Of a stretch of DNA of 64,000 bases, positions 14,744 through 22,718 are shown in pieces (the stretch's first letter is position 1; each line of letters starts with the position of its first letter). A program made the position numbers and the translations under genes. The stretch spans positions 224,001-288,000 of the forward strand of contig CAVSGM010000002.1 in assembly GCA_963727485.1 (NCBI GenBank), given 5' to 3'. Under the pieces are notes generated by a model. It was not told the DNA's origin. It worked only from the letters and a program-made list of their open reading frames with translations, and ran no database searches. The stretch is from an uncultured delta proteobacterium. GTDB lineage: Bacteria; Myxococcota; Myxococcia; SLRQ01.

Positions 14744-14818
14744 GCGCGCGTAACTCAGCGGTAGAGTGCCACCTTCACACGGTGGAAGTCGCTGGTTCGA
14801 ACCCAGCCGCGCGTACCA
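14744..14818 (+). tRNA. tRNA-Val (anticodon CAC)
   Basis: Acceptor stem GCGCGCG/CGCGCGT, D-arm TAACTCAGCGGTAGAGT, anticodon arm CCACC-TTCACAC-GGTGG, T-loop GGTTCGAACCC and an encoded CCA. Confidence 0.97.
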
Positions 14819-14882: not shown

Positions 14883-16421
14883 ATGGCTGCTTCCGAGCGC
14901 AGGCCCCGGGCCCTGGTCGTCGACGACGACGACGGGATGCGTGGGAACATGGCCCACATCCTCGAGGCCGACGGCTTCGAGACGGTGGGCGCGGTCGACG
15001 GGATGGACGCCCTGGGGCGGCTCGAGCGCGCCAGCTTCGACATCGCCCTCCTCGACATCCAGATGCCGGGCATCGACGGCCTGGAGACGCTGAAGCGGAT
15101 CCGGGAGAAGGCGCCGGAGGTCGAGGTGGTGATGGTCACGGTGCTCAAGGAGATCCCCAAGGTCGTCGAGGCGATGAAGCTCGGGGCCTTCGACTTCCTC
15201 ACCAAGGACTTCCGGGCCAGCGAGCTGCAGCTCAAGGCCCAGCAGGCCCTGACCCACAGGCGCACCGCCCGGCAGATGGCCTACCTCCGCGACGAGGTGG
15301 AGCGACAGGCCCCCGGCGAGATGATCATGGGCGACGGGCCGGCGATGCGCGAGGTGTCGACCCTGGTCGACAAGGTGGCGCCGCTCCCCGCCACGGTGCT
15401 GGTCCTCGGCGAGAGCGGGACGGGCAAGGAGCTGCTGGCCAGGCGTCTCCACCGCATCTGGTCCGGGGGCGACAAGAAGAAGCCCTTCGTCACGGTGAAC
15501 CTGGCGGCGATGCCCGCCAGCCTCATCGAGTCCCAGCTCTTCGGGCACGAGAAGGGGGCGTTCACCGGGGCCACCGAGCAGCGCCTGGGGAAGTTCGAGC
15601 TCGCCGACGGAGGCACGCTCTTCCTCGACGAGATTGGCGAGCTGCGCCTCGATCTCCAGGCGAAGCTCCTGCGCGCCATCCAGGAGCGCGAGGTGGAGCG
15701 CCTCGGGGGCAAGCGTCCGGTGCCGGTGGATGTCCGGCTCATCACCGCCACCAACGTCGACCTCAAGGAGGCGGTCCACGCCGGTCGCTTCCGTGAAGAC
15801 CTCTACTACCGCATCAACGTCATCCCCATCCGGCTGCCGCCCCTGCGCGAGCGCATCGAGGACGTGCCGGTGCTGGCGCGGCACTTCGCCCGGAAGGCGG
15901 GGCAGCGGTTCAACCGGCCAGTGCCCGAGCTCACCGACACGGCGCTCGAGGTGCTGATGCGCTACCCCTGGCCCGGGAACGTCCGGGAGCTGGAGAACCG
16001 CATCGCCGGGCTGGTGGCGGTGCAGGACCGGCCGGTCATCGACGACGTGGACCTGCCCATCGAGTTCAGCTACCCGCGCTTCTACGACGAGGCCCGGCGC
16101 AAGAAGGCGGACGGGCTGGCGGTGGCGCTCACGGCCTTCGAGCGGTCGTTCATCGCCATGACCCTGGAGAAGACGGGGTGGCACCGGAAGCAGGCGGCGG
16201 CGGAGCTGGGCATCGGCTACTCGACGCTGAAGAAGAAGCTCAAGAAGCTGGGTGCTCGCGCCGCCCGGGGGGCGCCACGCCGACGGGGACCCGGACGGCG
16301 ACGACGACGAGGGGTGAGCCCTCACCGGCGCCGGAGGGACGTGGCGCGCGTGGCCGGCGTCGTCAGGCGGCGTCGGGGGACGACTCGGCCACCGGGGGAC
16401 TGGCGCGCCGGGGCAGGGTGA
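14883..16421 (+). CDS. NtrC-family sigma54-dependent response regulator (receiver, AAA+, HTH). The true stop is probably at 16317 after a C-terminal frameshift.
   Basis: Receiver LVVDDD...LLDIQMP, GESGTGKE, GAFTGA, FLDEIG, FREDLYYR, WPGNVREL and HTH AAAELGIGYSTL. Confidence 0.95.
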   Translation: MAASERRPRALVVDDDDGMRGNMAHILEADGFETVGAVDGMDALGRLERASFDIALLDIQMPGIDGLETLKRIREKAPEVEVVMVTVLKEIPKVVEAMKLGAFDFLTKDFRASELQLKAQQALTHRRTARQMAYLRDEVERQAPGEMIMGDGPAMREVSTLVDKVAPLPATVLVLGESGTGKELLARRLHRIWSGGDKKKPFVTVNLAAMPASLIESQLFGHEKGAFTGATEQRLGKFELADGGTLFLDEIGELRLDLQAKLLRAIQEREVERLGGKRPVPVDVRLITATNVDLKEAVHAGRFREDLYYRINVIPIRLPPLRERIEDVPVLARHFARKAGQRFNRPVPELTDTALEVLMRYPWPGNVRELENRIAGLVAVQDRPVIDDVDLPIEFSYPRFYDEARRKKADGLAVALTAFERSFIAMTLEKTGWHRKQAAAELGIGYSTLKKKLKKLGARAARGAPRRRGPGRRRRRGVSPHRRRRDVARVAGVVRRRRGTTRPPGDWRAGAG

Positions 16422-18141
16422 CCACGAAGACGGCGCCGCCGCTGGGGCGGTTCCCGGCGGAGACGGTGCCCCCCTGCTCCTCGACGATGCGACGGACCAC
16501 GGCGAGGCCGAGGCCGAGGCCGTTGCCCGAGCCCTTGGTGGTGCGGAAGGCGTCGAAGAGGTCGTGGAGGAGCGCCGGGGGGATGCCCGGGCCGTCGTCC
16601 TCGACCACCACGGTGACCCGGCTCGCCTCGAGGCCGACGCGGAGGGTGACGTGTCCCCCGTGGTCGCGGAGGGCGTCGAGGGCGTTCTCCACGAGGTTGC
16701 GCACGGCGCGCTCGAGGGCCAGGGCGTCGACCTCGACCATGGGGTCCCCGTCGCCCTCGACGACCAGGGCGAGGGAGATGCCGCGGGTGCGGGCGGTGGC
16801 GGTGAGGCTGCCCTCGAGGCGACGGAGGAGGTCGGGGAGGAGCACCGGCGCGGCCTCGGCCTCCCGGGGGTTGGCGAACTCCGAGAGGTCGGCGAAGAGC
16901 CGGTCGATGTAGGCCTGCTCCCGGTCGAGGTTCGCCTCGAGGTCTTGGCGGGTGGCCTCGGTCTCGGGGATGTCGAGGAAGGTCCGGACGTGGGTGATGA
17001 GGTGCTGGAACGGGCGCTTGAGATCGTGGGCCAGCCCGCCGGCGATGCGGCCGAAGAACGCCAGGCGCTCCTGGCGGCGAATCTCCTGGGTGAGGGTGCC
17101 GAGGTCCTCGGCCATGTGGTTGAAGCCCCGGGCCAGGTCGCCGAGCTCGTCGGGGCGGTCGTGGTGGACGCGGACGGTGAAGTCGCCCTCGCCGATGCGC
17201 CGGGCGCCGGCGGCGAGGCGCTCCACGGGGTTGACGATGGTCCGGGCGCCGATGAAGGTCACGGTGCCCACGGCGAGGAGCGCCGCGAAGAGCACGATGA
17301 GCAGGCCGAGGCCGAGCGCCCGCGCCTGGGCGAAGGCGTCCCGCGCAGGTGTCTCCACCACGGCGACCCAGTCGGTGCCCGGGACGGAGGCGGCGGCGCC
17401 GACCACCTGCAGCCCGTCGCGGCGGTCATAGGTCGCCGACACGGCGCCGCCGTCCTTCTCCACCTCGTTCACGATCTTCGGGGTGGGGTAGGGGCGGCGC
17501 TGGATGGCGTAGACGAGCTCCTTGGCGATGCCGTGGGCGAAGAGGTGCCCGTGGCGGTCGACGAGGTAGGTGTAGCCGGTGCGACCGAGGCGCAGGTCGC
17601 GGACCATGGACCACAGCTCCAGGGTGTCGACCTCGGCGGCGAGCGCCCCCACGGTCCGCCCGAGGCGGTGGACCGGCACGGCCACGGCCATCACCGGCAG
17701 CAGGTCGTCGCCGATGACCACCTGGGTCACCTGGGGCTTGCCGGTGGCCAGGGTCTTGTCCGCGGCGCCGCGCACCAGCTTGGAGGGCCCCTTGTCCGGC
17801 AGCAAGGTGCTGAAGGTCCGTTTGCCCCCGTGGTCGAAGTCGACCAGGTAGCGCAGGGTGCGGTCCTCGAGGAGCGCCCGCGCCAGCACCCGGTCGGTCT
17901 CGGTGGCGTCGAGCCCGTTGCCCGGGCTCACCGCCGCCCCCACCGCCCGCACCACGTCCACGCGCCCGCGGACGAAGGCCCCGACCCGCTTGGCCACCTC
18001 CGACGCCGCCGCCCGGGTCCCGGCGGTCACGCCCTCCTGCGCCCCGCGGATTCCGGACCAGGTGGCGTAGACCCCGTAGGCGCCGAGGGGAAAGAGCGTG
18101 GTGAGCGCCAGGAAGAGCAGGAGCTTGGCGCGCAGGCGCAT
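16363..18141 (-). CDS. Membrane sensor histidine kinase (TM, Cache-like periplasmic domain, TM, HAMP, HisKA, HATPase_c)
   Basis: Two TM helices, Cache-like GYTYLVDRHG, HAMP DELGDLARGFNHM, H-box LAHDLKRP, NLVENA, DDGPG and GLGLAVV. Confidence 0.93.
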   Translation of the reverse strand: MRLRAKLLLFLALTTLFPLGAYGVYATWSGIRGAQEGVTAGTRAAASEVAKRVGAFVRGRVDVVRAVGAAVSPGNGLDATETDRVLARALLEDRTLRYLVDFDHGGKRTFSTLLPDKGPSKLVRGAADKTLATGKPQVTQVVIGDDLLPVMAVAVPVHRLGRTVGALAAEVDTLELWSMVRDLRLGRTGYTYLVDRHGHLFAHGIAKELVYAIQRRPYPTPKIVNEVEKDGGAVSATYDRRDGLQVVGAAASVPGTDWVAVVETPARDAFAQARALGLGLLIVLFAALLAVGTVTFIGARTIVNPVERLAAGARRIGEGDFTVRVHHDRPDELGDLARGFNHMAEDLGTLTQEIRRQERLAFFGRIAGGLAHDLKRPFQHLITHVRTFLDIPETEATRQDLEANLDREQAYIDRLFADLSEFANPREAEAAPVLLPDLLRRLEGSLTATARTRGISLALVVEGDGDPMVEVDALALERAVRNLVENALDALRDHGGHVTLRVGLEASRVTVVVEDDGPGIPPALLHDLFDAFRTTKGSGNGLGLGLAVVRRIVEEQGGTVSAGNRPSGGAVFVVTLPRRASPPVAESSPDAA

Positions 18142-19494
18142 CTAGTGGGCCTTGGCCGGGCGGATGGAGAGGGCCAGCGAGTAGGGCTCGGTCGAGTCGG
18201 GCTTGGGATGGACGAAGCGGAAGCGCTTGGAGGTGACGGCGACGCGGGGGAGCACGCCCAGCGGCACGAAGGGCGGGTTCTCCGCGAGGCGCTTGCGGAT
18301 GTCCTTCCAGGTCGCGCCCTTGGCGAGCATGGCGTCGAGGACCGGGTCGTGGTGGTGGCCGACGTTCAGGCGGGCGCTCGATGGCGACATACAACGTTGG
18401 GGCCCGAGCGGGTGGCGCAAGTTGATGAAGCTAGGCGGAGGTCGAGCTTCCATGGGCTGGCCAAGTCGCTGCTTGGGCCACATGCTGTCACATGAGCCTG
18501 GACTCCTGCATCCGCTAGGCTCACGAAGAGGTCTTCGGTCGCCATGCGCGATCTCCTCGAGGTTGACGATCTCGAGGTCTAGCGGCTTGGTGATGGTCTT
18601 CAGCATCCTCTTGCACCCAGCGCGGAGGGGCGTGTCAGAACCGACTTGCCGATGGACCCGTGCGGGCGTCGGGGCCAGCCCATAGGCGACCTGCCAACGC
18701 CCGGAAGGCAGGAGTGATGGCTCTGGCAATGCACCGCCGGACCGCCGTGACTTTGGAGTAGGGGCTCATCTTCGTTGAAGACGAGCACAGCCTCGGTGTT
18801 CCTCTGCAGTACGGAGTCACCAGTCCTACCCGAGGCAGCGAGCAGGCGATCGTGCTGTAGGGGGAGCCCGCCGGCCACGTCGGCGTCGCCGGCTAGCAGG
18901 TGGGCGAAGACGGCCACGCGGCCCCGAGACGTGTCGGACGACCATCAGCCGAGGGTCGTGCATGGGCTGCACGGCGCGCGAGACAGATCCGGCTGGGCGC
19001 TCTGGGAGCGACCCGGTACGGGCCTGCGCCAATCCACGCCCCGTCCCGACCTCTTCGGGCAACGGGTGCCCACGGGACCGCGTGCATGTCCGGTGTCGGC
19101 AGGTGCAGGATACAGCCTGCCGTTGCGCTGCCAGTGCCAGCTCTCGCTCTGGGACCCCAGATGCAGCTCACGGCGGATCGCGCTGACGAGGTCGCGCGGC
19201 CGGATCGGGGAGCCGTCCTGGAAGTACCAGGTCGGCTTGAGGTTCGACCGCACAAGGATTCTCGCTGGGGCAGTGCAGGGCAGCCGGATAAGACGTGATC
19301 CGAGTGGAGGCGCAATTAGGTCGAGCAGGGTGGCCGAGTCGCCGTTGTGGGGCATGCCGGGAACGAGCGGCTCGAGAGGGCGGGGTGAGACCCACACGAG
19401 CGGTCGCTCCTGGCGCTGGCGGGCGTGGCCTGACACAGGCCGACAGGAGAAGCCCAAGCGCAAGCGCAAGCGGTACAGTCCTTCGGTGCCTCAC
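18142..19494 (-). CDS. Family-5 (Opp/Dpp-type) extracellular solute-binding lipoprotein, broken by several frameshifts in this assembly
   Basis: Assembled across frames: lipoprotein signal MRHRRTVPLALALGLLLSAC; LKPTWYFQDGSPIRPRDLVSAIRR (cf. LRxGVKFHDGxPLTAxDV); IGAGPYRV (cf. GTGPY); HLLAGDAD; LVFNEDEP..VRRCIARAI; DPVLDAMLA...LAENPPFVPL. Its stop directly abuts the kinase ATG. Confidence 0.65.
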
Positions 19495-19533
19495 CGAGAC
19501 AGCCTAGTCGTAGTCGCGCAGTCCGACGGAAGA

Positions 19534-19561
19534 CAAAGGCCCCCGTCGCTGACGAGGGCCT
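19534..19561 (-). terminator. Intrinsic terminator downstream of the small peptide gene
   Basis: On the minus strand, AGGCCCTCGTC-AGC-GACGGGGGCCT followed by TTGTCTT. Confidence 0.6.
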
Positions 19562-19588
19562 CTCGAATCTCAGAACGGTGACCGCGGG

Positions 19589-19657
19589 TTAGAAGCCGGC
19601 GAGGGCGTCGCAGGGGATGCGCTTCCGATTCCGCTTGTTGAGGGGCTTCTTGACCAT
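19589..19657 (-). CDS. Putative RiPP precursor peptide MVKKPLNKRNRKRIPCDALAGF (22 aa)
   Basis: ATG...TAA read manually, as it is below the ORF-track cutoff. Strong RBS GAAAGGAAGG about 6 nt upstream. Lies 121 bp downstream of the rSAM/SPASM gene on the same strand and is followed by a terminator. Single Cys. Confidence 0.75.
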   Translation of the reverse strand: MVKKPLNKRNRKRIPCDALAGF

Positions 19658-19778
19658 GGCGAACCTTCCTTTCGGGAAGTGGGGGGACTTCGTTGGGGGG
19701 GACTTCAGGGGGCAGAGGTCGGGCTTGCAGGTCCCCACACGTGGGGAGCCTCCCGGCCCCGGCGTCGGACAAAGGCGG

Positions 19779-21137: not shown

Positions 21138-21153
21138 AGCAGGGAGCGTGCCA
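21138..21153 (-). promoter_or_regulatory. sigma54 (-24/-12) promoter for the rSAM-peptide transcript
   Basis: On the minus strand, TGGCACG-CTCC-CTGCT (GG-N10-GC), 30 bp upstream of the rSAM ATG. Confidence 0.75.
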
Positions 21154-21163
21154 CCCGCCAGGG

Positions 21164-21558
21164 GGCTCCAAATCGAGCCCTCCCGACTCGGCTCAGCGGT
21201 CCAAGCTGGAAATCTCAATTGATTTCAACCACCTGTCACCAAGGCTCAAAATAGAGCCCCACGTGGCTACCCTCGCCCGAAGCGACACAAGCCACCGGAA
21301 TCACTGTGAATCGCCTGGACCAGGCCCCGAATGGGGCTTATCCCGACCCCAGGGGACTCTTCCAAAAAACACCTGTGATCACAAGGCGTTGGAAAGAGGG
21401 TGGCGACCCCGCCGGGGCACGTCGCCCAGCTTCGGGAAAGGGCTCCATTTGGAGCCCTTTCGTCCCGGGGCGGGGCCAGATCACGGGGAAATACCAATAA
21501 AAACCGTGATTTGGGCGCAGCCGCTCCTAGGCGAGCCCTCAGGTCTCACCCTAGAGCC
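21164..21558. promoter_or_regulatory. Array of GGCTC-N6-GAGCC palindromes (candidate enhancer-binding-protein sites)
   Basis: Perfect copies at 21164-21179, 21243-21258 and 21441-21456. One-mismatch copies at 21522-21537 and 21543-21558. Confidence 0.7.
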
Positions 21559-21594: not shown

Positions 21595-21843
21595 ATGTCC
21601 AGGCTCGCCAAGGTCAAGGTCGTCGAGCTCGACGGGAAAAAGGTGTTCCTCCACTTCTACGAGGACGTCTCGACCCTCGGGACGCCCCGCTACTCGGTGG
21701 AGATCCGCTTCGGCCCCGAGGACCGCGTCGTCTTCGACGGCCCCAGCATCTCGGACCTCGAGGCGACCACCCAGGCCTGCCTCCCTGCCACCTGGGCCAG
21801 CCGGCGGATGCTCGCCGGCGCGGCCTACGGCGCCCCCCACTGA
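21595..21843 (+). CDS. Hypothetical protein (82 aa)
   Basis: Starts MSRLAKVKVVELDGKKVFLHFYED... with strong GC3 bias. Its TGA overlaps the next ATG (TGATG). Confidence 0.7.
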   Translation: MSRLAKVKVVELDGKKVFLHFYEDVSTLGTPRYSVEIRFGPEDRVVFDGPSISDLEATTQACLPATWASRRMLAGAAYGAPH

Positions 21844-22718
21844 TGCAACCCCTCGCCTCCCAGCCGACGCCCTCGCGTCCCTACCGCGCCGATCCCATGC
21901 CCCGCGACCCCGAGCTTCACGCCGCCCGCCTCGTCGAGCTGGGCAGCCTGGTACCGGGGCTGGTGCACGAGCTCTCGAACCCGGCCGCGGTCCTCCGGGG
22001 CAACCTCGGCGCCGTCGTCGACCACGCCGACACCCTGGGCCGACTGGTCAACGGCCTCGACCAGGGGCAGGACGCCTCGGCCCTGCGCCGGGACCTCGAG
22101 CTCGATGACACCGCCATCGACCTCGCCGAGCTGGTGGGCGAGTCCGCCGGCGCCCTCGACGAGCTGGTCTCCCTCCTCGGCGACATCCGTCACTACGCCG
22201 CCGGCGCCGAGGCCGAGGCCGAGGCCGATCTCGCCTCGGCCGTCGCCGCCGCCCTGCGCCTCGCCACCTACGAGACCAAGTACCGGGCCGCCGTGAGCGT
22301 CGGCGTCGGCGACCTCCCTCGGATCGCCCTGTGCCCCGTCCACCTGGTGCAGCTGGTGCTGGCCCTCATCCTCAACGCCGCCCAGGCCCTCGCCGACCAC
22401 CGGCAGCTCCACGGCGACCTGGGCCACGTGTCCCTCTCGGCCAGGGCCGAGGGCGACGACCTCGTCGTCCTCGAGGTCCGCGACGACGGCCCCGGCGTGT
22501 CCCCCGACCTCGCCGACCGCGTCTTCGAGCCCGGGGTCACCTCGCGGCCCGGGGCCAGGGGCATGGGCCTGTACCACGCCCGGAACCTCCTCGAGCGCGC
22601 CGGTGGCGCCCTCGTCCTCCAACCGCCCCGTGGCGGGGGCGCCGTCTTCGTCGCGCGCCTGCCCGCCCTCTCCGACGACATTCACAGTGAGGCCATCGGT
22701 CCTGTCCACAAGACATAG
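21843..22718 (+). CDS. Cytoplasmic histidine kinase without a sensor domain (HisKA-HATPase_c)
   Basis: Contains LVHELSNP, LILNAAQA, DDGPG and GMGLY. No TM or input domain. Confidence 0.85.
   Translation: MQPLASQPTPSRPYRADPMPRDPELHAARLVELGSLVPGLVHELSNPAAVLRGNLGAVVDHADTLGRLVNGLDQGQDASALRRDLELDDTAIDLAELVGESAGALDELVSLLGDIRHYAAGAEAEAEADLASAVAAALRLATYETKYRAAVSVGVGDLPRIALCPVHLVQLVLALILNAAQALADHRQLHGDLGHVSLSARAEGDDLVVLEVRDDGPGVSPDLADRVFEPGVTSRPGARGMGLYHARNLLERAGGALVLQPPRGGGAVFVARLPALSDDIHSEAIGPVHKT

Follow-up and report, generated by a model that had tools for sequence, protein, structure and literature searches.

The window, as the whole stretch of 64,000 nucleotides analysed here is called, is part of contig C2 in a 5.55 Mb genome that is 93% complete. 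In order along its minus strand it holds a gene for a radical SAM (rSAM)/SPASM enzyme, a 22-codon ORF (MVKKPLNKRNRKRIPCDALAGF; minus strand, 19657-19589, with ATG at 19657-19655 and TAA at 19591-19589), the broken remains of a family-5 binding lipoprotein gene and a histidine kinase gene, on which a gene for a sigma-54-dependent activator converges (Table 1). A tRNA-Val(CAC) gene at 14744-14818, directly upstream of the activator, borders this cassette. The original prediction had singled out the peptide and its enzyme and missed the larger unit around them, in which rSAM, peptide, family-5 binding lipoprotein, dCache kinase, NtrC-type activator and sigma-54 motif form a conserved set in four phyla.

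Table 1 Features of the cassette and its borders in the window
Feature	Positions	Strand	Basis or context
Sigma-54-dependent NtrC-type response regulator (receiver, AAA+, HTH_8), convergent on kinase	14883..16421	+	Domain and ortholog matches
dCache_1-HAMP histidine kinase, cassette-kinase ortholog; start directly after binding-protein stop	16363..18141	-	Ortholog and domain matches
Family-5 (AppA/OppA-like) binding lipoprotein gene, frameshifted colinear pieces	18142..19494	-	Profile and G001 ortholog alignment
13-bp stem-loop 3' of peptide; intercistronic hairpin or weak terminator	19535..19563	-	Hairpin stability versus shuffles
Precursor peptide, 22 aa (basic N-terminal part, Pro15-Cys16, tail DALAGF)	19589..19657	-	Codons, family comparison, strain contig
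Shine-Dalgarno sequence GAAAGGAAGG	19664..19673	-	6 nt before peptide ATG
Radical SAM/SPASM maturase, 442 aa	19779..21107	-	Domain matches, alignment, structure model
Sigma-54 -24/-12 promoter motif GTGGCACGCTCCCTGCT	21138..21154	-	47 nt upstream of rSAM start; same place in G001
GGCTC-N6-GAGCC palindrome 1, candidate activator site	21164..21179	.	Upstream of rSAM
GGCTC-N6-GAGCC palindrome 2	21243..21258	.	Upstream of rSAM
GGCTC-N6-GAGCC palindrome 3	21441..21456	.	Upstream of rSAM
Divergent 82-aa gene without Pfam family, syntenic in G001	21595..21843	+	Synteny

Judged by its sequence, the 22-codon ORF is a real gene. The strong Shine-Dalgarno sequence, the host-like codons and the position right behind the rSAM gene on which it had been proposed all held: the ATG lies 121 nt past the rSAM stop, GC3 is 21/22, and the codon score is 0.59 against 0.29-0.54 in nine window genes, a value reached by 2.9% of 5000 random windows (real genes among them). 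An exact look-up of the 22-aa sequence returned no entry in the protein collection. A 49-codon extension from a GTG was rejected as the start, as the Shine-Dalgarno sequence and the Met-to-Cys spacing of the family (16 residues in 33 of 37) favour ATG 19657. The precursor has no hydrophobic stretch before the Cys, and on this ground export by Tat or as a lipoprotein was dismissed as well. In the spacer between the two genes, positions 19681-19746 contain a tandem pair of GAAGTCCCCCC-like repeats together with a small hairpin.

The terminator ascribed to the ORF stood only in part. A 13-bp hairpin does follow it (z -2.4, with 4 of 200 shuffles equally stable), but a terminator scan called none after the ORF, and the binding-protein gene comes next on the same strand in relatives, so that an intercistronic stem-loop is more likely than a terminator. 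Hairpins 3' of the peptide were present in 52 of 58 relatives, a count made with no GC-matched control.

Precursor family

Eighty related genome loci were taken, of which 72 had sufficient downstream sequence. A filter for Shine-Dalgarno-led, basic, Cys-containing ORFs of 18-60 codons, designed after the peptides had been seen, detected a precursor-like ORF downstream of the rSAM gene in 62 of these, and four more were recognised by eye (L045, L069, L077 and L080), giving 66/72; in the remaining six (L031, L034, L037, L056, L059 and L086) no precursor ORF was found downstream of the rSAM gene. As a control, the filter selected ORFs downstream of rSAM in 52 of 57 loci, as against one on the opposite strand and none upstream. 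Short basic single-Cys ORFs follow related rSAM genes in Myxococcota, Acidobacteriota, Nitrospirota and Desulfobacterota. This small-ORF search, which the original prediction had put forward as its check, recovered the expected combination of a basic N-terminal part that is conserved, a Cys that never changes and a tail that varies, and the alignment of relatives supports a bipartite RiPP-type precursor with a basic leader and a short Cys-containing core.

Among 37 Myxococcota precursors the Cys is invariant, with Met 16 residues before it in 33, Arg at -5 in 34 and Pro at -1 in 25, while 27 Acidobacteriota precursors follow the pattern CP(W/F)xxDxP. The window peptide retains Lys -13, Lys -8, Arg -5, Pro -1 and the Cys; the serines of the family are absent, and with them the S-x-R-K-S-x-R signature typical of most Myxococcota relatives. 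Under a profile of 39 relatives anchored on Met and Cys, it comes first among the 866 small ORFs of its genome, at only 9.4 bits, and with a looser profile it falls outside the top 8 of 19,729. These comparisons mark it, at the sequence level, as a divergent member of the family. Neither the window peptide nor 20 relatives reached an NCBIfam family. The enzymes yielded by a metagenome scan were all distant (23-33% identity) and came with peptides of other kinds.

The tails were compared in a core set of 76 sequences, which includes a few alternative-start duplicates and false positives. The tail is exactly five residues long after the Cys in 20 of the 76 and shorter in one false positive only. 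Positions +3 and +4 are largely aliphatic, +5 is Asp in 26/76 (mostly Acidobacteria) and Gly in 14/76, and Gly is found at each of +1 to +5 in some member. Asp at Cys+1 occurs once in the set, and the Myxococcota cores have no conserved Asp, Glu, Thr or Asn acceptor. In the window peptide, +3 to +5 are Leu, Ala and Gly; its single Cys lacks a CX3D/E context, as had been noted, Cys+4 being Ala.

Tandem near-identical precursor copies occur in several loci, with four in L050:5367-5669, three in L057:5578-6000 and two each in L038, L039 and L068, and L062 has one ORF with two cores. Core similarity and binding-protein similarity, given the rSAM enzyme, had partial correlations of 0.14 (15 Myxococcota loci) and 0.53 (17 Acidobacteriota loci), kinship being uncorrected. 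The basic leader tracks the binding protein over the enzyme (partial r 0.54 versus -0.07; 15 Myxococcota loci, alignment A3, kinship uncorrected), and if this tracking is real the receptor may see more than the core.

The maturase and the predicted linkage

The enzyme has a CxxxCxxC motif at residues 101-108 and SPASM cysteines at 327, 346, 381, 384, 390, 394 and 409 that are invariant in 26 aligned relatives, at least 90% of which also conserve Cys292. It matches PF04055 and TIGR04085 above cut-off, and in an AlphaFold2 model (pLDDT 84) residues 7-86 form three strands and three helices in the layout of an RRE. Its closest solved relative by both sequence (E 6e-35) and fold is CteB. The features that define RRE-dependent rSAM/SPASM RiPP maturases, namely the CxxxCxxC core, the SPASM domain, the N-terminal RRE fold and an adjacent conserved precursor, are all found here, and the 22-aa peptide is predicted with high confidence to be the substrate of the adjacent enzyme. 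The RRE-rSAM-SPASM layout is shared with the CteB/SCIFF ranthipeptide enzymes, PapB and NxxcB, but the window enzyme is only about 20% identical and scores far under their NCBIfam cut-offs (85.9 of 425 and 118.3 of 340), and its peptide has one Cys against six.

In a FastTree tree of 124 enzyme rows, from which split or truncated enzymes were omitted, the window enzyme falls in a 45-row Myxococcota clade (support 100) next to an Acidobacteriota clade (92), and the named relatives within its clade are Myxococcota; its own sub-clade includes P0002-P0005 and G001, a genome of the same family. Geopeptide enzymes form a separate clade (support 100).

Cys16 probably forms a thioether. A review (PMC8326336) describes for CteB a leader bound by the RRE and one SPASM cluster with an open site able to bind the substrate Cys. 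Given that description and the seven invariant SPASM cysteines, the window enzyme would likewise keep one open iron, which Cys292 could fill. As to the acceptor, no family tail has fewer than five residues and Gly occupies every downstream position in some member; if one register holds throughout the family, the bond must reach an alpha-carbon in the Gly-containing members. A sactionine-type link from Cys16 to the alpha-carbon of Cys+4 or Cys+5 (Ala20 or Gly21) is therefore put forward as a tentative assignment from sequence. Ranthipeptides are characterised by a conserved Asp, Glu, Thr or Asn acceptor, as in CX3D, which the window peptide lacks, and a ranthionine to Asp17 is unlikely given how rare Asp is at Cys+1. 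The acceptor may also lie upstream, or the chemistry may be other than a thioether.

Binding protein, kinase and sigma-54 activator

In loci with enough flank, the binding protein was found in 54 of 62, the kinase in 50 of 56 and the activator, counted either up- or downstream, in 34 of 40; the 4-kb flanks clip some loci, and the loci are related, so that the counts are not independent. G001 has the rSAM enzyme (53%), an intact binding protein, the kinase (44-47%) and the activator (71%), its peptide region falling in a contig gap, and three further genomes of the family (G002-G004) yielded neither rSAM nor kinase ortholog. The enzyme was detected in 44 of 368 genomes of the class, with 29/34 in family f6, 12/92 in f3 and 1/208 in f2. 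Within the window genome, the kinase is the best match for four of seven cassette kinase seeds and the activator for four of six activator seeds.

The binding-protein gene is broken in this genome. From 19494 to 18142 a lipoprotein signal is followed by segments matching profile positions 101-131, 171-207 and 424-491, in order and in differing frames, with at least four frame changes in all. This remnant is the sole match of the G001 ortholog, and no intact ortholog was found in the 93%-complete genome. GC3 is 0.62-0.81 in five homologous pieces and 0.94 in the last, against about 0.97 in the neighbours, and the codons are host-like in the last ~75 only. A foreign insertion or IS at 18400-19500 was considered and rejected, as the region is not repeated in the genome and is colinear with the binding-protein profile.

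Low-depth contigs of one related strain, from a soil run (X2), differ from the window by 26 bases and 8 gaps over 581 nt of the receptor gene but, over 1067 nt of the rSAM gene, by 6 bases without any gap, and are identical to it across the peptide ORF and Shine-Dalgarno sequence; 9 of 13 listed receptor-gene changes are GC to AT in X2. As read from these sequences, the pattern agrees with a receptor on which selection has been relaxed in the two strains and with a peptide and enzyme that are retained. The frame changes and lowered GC3 would also be expected if the whole cassette were dead in this lineage and the peptide ORF a vestige, yet this is very improbable, as the X2 changes cluster in the receptor gene and the promoter and palindromes are intact and common to G001. 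Some of the receptor-gene breaks may be assembly errors, since a net one-base difference in X2 near 18980-19010 coincides with one frame change, the activator tail is suspect and the contigs are shallow. At that tail (16248-16421) the activator ORF continues into the 3' end of the kinase gene, and reading on in another frame past the HTH yields a short acidic tail that ends near 16317, which suggests, on sequence, a one-base assembly slip.

The best solved match of the binding-protein profile is the oligopeptide-binding AppA (E 4e-70), followed by other peptide, nickel and heme binders. In 15 Myxococcota loci the receptor is the most divergent cassette protein, with a mean identity of 41% versus 58% and 61%. 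A family-5 binding protein with a fused N-terminal HTH lies directly behind a related rSAM gene at L031:5340-7247, the peptide not being found there. When a relative's binding protein (L016) was folded with the periplasmic dCache domain of its kinase, the complex scored 0.67 and the best of three controls 0.00, contact agreement between runs and partner pLDDT being at least 85% and at least 85. Of solved pairs 116 of 157 attain the mark for this score, of mismatched pairs 2 of 215, counts that apply only roughly to the alignments used. The model supports docking of the binding protein on the dCache kinase in this relative, with a predicted interface at residues 167-196 and 274-281 of the L016 receptor and 90-97 and 198-206 of the kinase, in the numbering of the model. 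Solved matches of the sensor-domain profile at E 0.001 are mostly chemoreceptor domains, and the score may reflect likeness to solved binding protein-sensor pairs.

Scored against a consensus of 13 positions, a sigma-54 motif of at least 11/13 was found no farther than 160 nt from the rSAM start in 36 of 76 loci, as against none on the reverse strand and 0.2 in shuffles; most Myxococcota have it some 30 nt upstream. At 9/13 or more, a threshold picked afterwards, it is present in 46 of 51 loci with the kinase versus 0 of 6 without, and the window genome has an rpoN gene. Three of the 31 GGCTC-N6-GAGCC palindromes in the whole genome fall within 280 nt upstream in the window, as do three in G001, and with one mismatch tolerated at least one is found in 21 of 38 Myxococcota regions (shuffles mean 2.2, maximum 6). 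These palindromes would be bound by the linked activator.

The divergent 82-aa gene upstream is a possible accessory or output gene. It is coupled to a kinase-like gene at 21843-22718 (+) with a HATPase match only; a one-round profile detected homologs in 6 of 71 loci, where Myxococcota have them upstream and Acidobacteriota after the kinase, and neighbour-gene clusters 7 and 10 may share its family. No shared exporter, protease/peptidase or outer-membrane receptor was found among 66 proteins from ten 20-kb loci and the window, a scan that omitted cassette genes and some short ORFs, and the neighbour clusters of the 80 loci contain no dedicated export or processing gene. In 25 Myxococcota loci (L008-L084) a gene for a membrane protein of the VTT/DedA family is located about 1.2 kb upstream of rSAM; it may be plain synteny or an export candidate.

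Three Polyangiaceae loci (L009:2522-2659, L011:5796-5924 and L025:5387-5512) carry the enzyme and longer precursors of 42-46 aa, without binding protein, kinase or sigma-54 motif. The L011 precursor sits between an S15 peptidase and a methyltransferase, possibly as part of a repurposed pathway.

Known systems and the self-sensing reading

The best NCBIfam match of the window enzyme is the geopeptide maturase TIGR04280, at 222.7 bits against a cut-off of 400 (ten relatives, 216-308 bits). The geopeptide precursor model TIGR04229 (cut-off 30 bits) was matched by neither the window peptide nor 20 relatives, and nothing in the genome exceeded its cut-off. Geopeptides (TIGR04229/TIGR04280, a hypothetical equivalog) resemble the window system in having a short basic-leader Cys peptide with a binding protein and a kinase, and sometimes a sigma-54 activator. 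However, in 25 genomes with over-cut-off TIGR04280 enzymes, drawn from 401 genomes of one phylum, the precursors lie upstream of the enzyme and carry a CC pair (at least 12 of the 25 loci, where the filter found them), whereas the window precursor lies downstream and has one Cys. Six geopeptide loci have a TonB receptor (6/6), a PF04392 binding protein (5/5 tested) and a kinase (6/6), in contrast to the PF00496 receptor and dCache kinase of the window. With its maturase below cut-off, one Cys rather than CC, no TonB receptor and a separate enzyme clade, the window system is, by sequence comparison, a sister of the geopeptide system in design and not a member of it. One relative, an Anaeromyxobacteraceae leader (L022:5393-5458), approached the methanobactin precursor model TIGR04071 (E 0.096 over residues 1-9, below cut-off); the scanned neighbours contained no MbnBC-type partner enzymes.

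The lack of an outer-membrane receptor or exporter, which sets the cassette apart from the geopeptide loci, could mean that the peptide stays in the envelope as a cell-internal or periplasmic self-signal, reporting the activity of the oxygen-sensitive Fe-S enzyme to the kinase. This seems improbable: the variable, lineage-specific cores and multi-copy precursors (up to four) are a better fit to cell-to-cell specificity, and a hexapeptide-sized product could pass porins.

The pairing of an SBP_bac_5 protein with a dCache-type sensor kinase recalls Vibrio CBP/ChiS, in which CBP represses ChiS until ligand binds, as set out in a review (PMC8050422). The ligands given there for CBP/ChiS and LuxP/LuxQ are, unlike a peptide, chitin oligosaccharides and AI-2, and no ribosomal peptide ligand appears among the sensor-kinase rows examined in that source. 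By this precedent, the binding protein and kinase might sense an outside cue (a nutrient peptide, metal complex or small molecule), the modified peptide being an output such as an antimicrobial or metal binder and not the ligand. Family-5 proteins also bind nickel, heme and opines, and NikA and heme- and opine-binding proteins rank high among the solved matches; streptococcal rSAM RiPPs are outputs of a separate signal, according to PMC8326336; and the three Polyangiaceae loci retain the RiPP without the sensor. The ligand range of family-5 proteins and the Polyangiaceae loci also count against self-sensing. The outside-cue explanation is given a real but minor share of the probability. What weighs against it is that the receptor gene stands directly behind the peptide in the same direction with no ABC permease beside it, that no other protein of the set is as divergent as the receptor, which is what a variable ligand would lead one to expect, that immunity or export genes were not found among the scanned neighbours, and that the sister geopeptide cassette pairs its peptide with different import and sensing genes, a repeated association.

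Peptide autoinducers are a textbook feature of Gram-positive bacteria. The Agr autoinducing peptides combine a short precursor, one Cys, a small ring, a dedicated kinase and regulator, and positive feedback; the thiolactone is made by AgrB, the membrane kinase binds the peptide directly and the regulator is of the LytTR type. The window cassette likewise joins a short one-Cys precursor to a kinase and a regulator, but with a radical SAM enzyme, a periplasmic receptor and a sigma-54 activator, and in diderm bacteria. As in autoinducing-peptide systems, putative signal gene, sensor and regulator are linked and the signal operon has a promoter of the regulator's type; a dedicated export or processing gene, also characteristic of such loci, was not found in the loci scanned. 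The remark in the original prediction that the macrocycle would be autoinducer-like in size gains support from elements it had not connected to the peptide: a receptor, a kinase, a sigma-54 activator and a promoter.

The reading favoured here, by a modest preference, is that the peptide is cyclised through a thioether and serves as a signal inducing its own production, with the binding protein, kinase and sigma-54 activator of its cassette as the readers. The enzyme would, very probably, bind the basic N-terminal part through its RRE-like domain, and is predicted to cyclise the peptide through its single Cys. The periplasmic AppA-like lipoprotein would then, somewhat more plausibly than otherwise, bind the peptide and dock on the dCache kinase as CBP does on ChiS, a contact suggested by the folding model. 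The phosphorylated activator would bind the palindromes and fire the sigma-54 promoter, closing a positive feedback. For export and leader removal the cassette offers neither an exporter nor a protease of its own. Since this genome retains peptide, enzyme and kinase but has a broken receptor gene, its loop is either rewired, through a kinase locked on or off, through direct sensing or as a cell that only sends, or starting to decay.

No description of an rSAM-peptide-binding protein-kinase cassette was found in the literature searched, which comprised largely titles and abstract openings, with subscription journals and supplements outside the search; within the same scope no geopeptide experiments were described, the papers listed under that word dealing, by title, with unrelated subjects, chiefly Bacillus lipopeptides. 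The present analysis adds the single-Cys precursor family of Myxococcota, an argument from Gly for a link to an alpha-carbon, a model of the contact between receptor and kinase, and a genome without an intact receptor.

A broader proposal, advanced with more reserve than the self-sensing loop itself, is that the cassette represents a widespread quorum-sensing chemistry of diderm bacteria, in which an rSAM-cyclised single-Cys autoinducer with lineage-specific cores works through a loop of orphan AppA-like lipoprotein, dCache kinase and sigma-54 activator. Such a chemistry would be near-universal in one uncultured Myxococcia family (29/34 genomes) and common in Vicinamibacterales, with the window genome as a receptor-less signal maker. 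The variety of cores, from all-Gly/Ala tails to CPWxxDxP, points to a tolerant single-site cyclase, and a 22-33-residue one-Cys substrate, one enzyme, a soluble receptor and a defined promoter make the system tractable in E. coli. If the reading is true, uncultured Myxococcota and Acidobacteriota that are abundant in soil and sediment would have a complete loop for making and sensing a peptide. Outer-membrane bacteria would gain a further class of signalling, and an orphan rSAM/SPASM clade would acquire a function.
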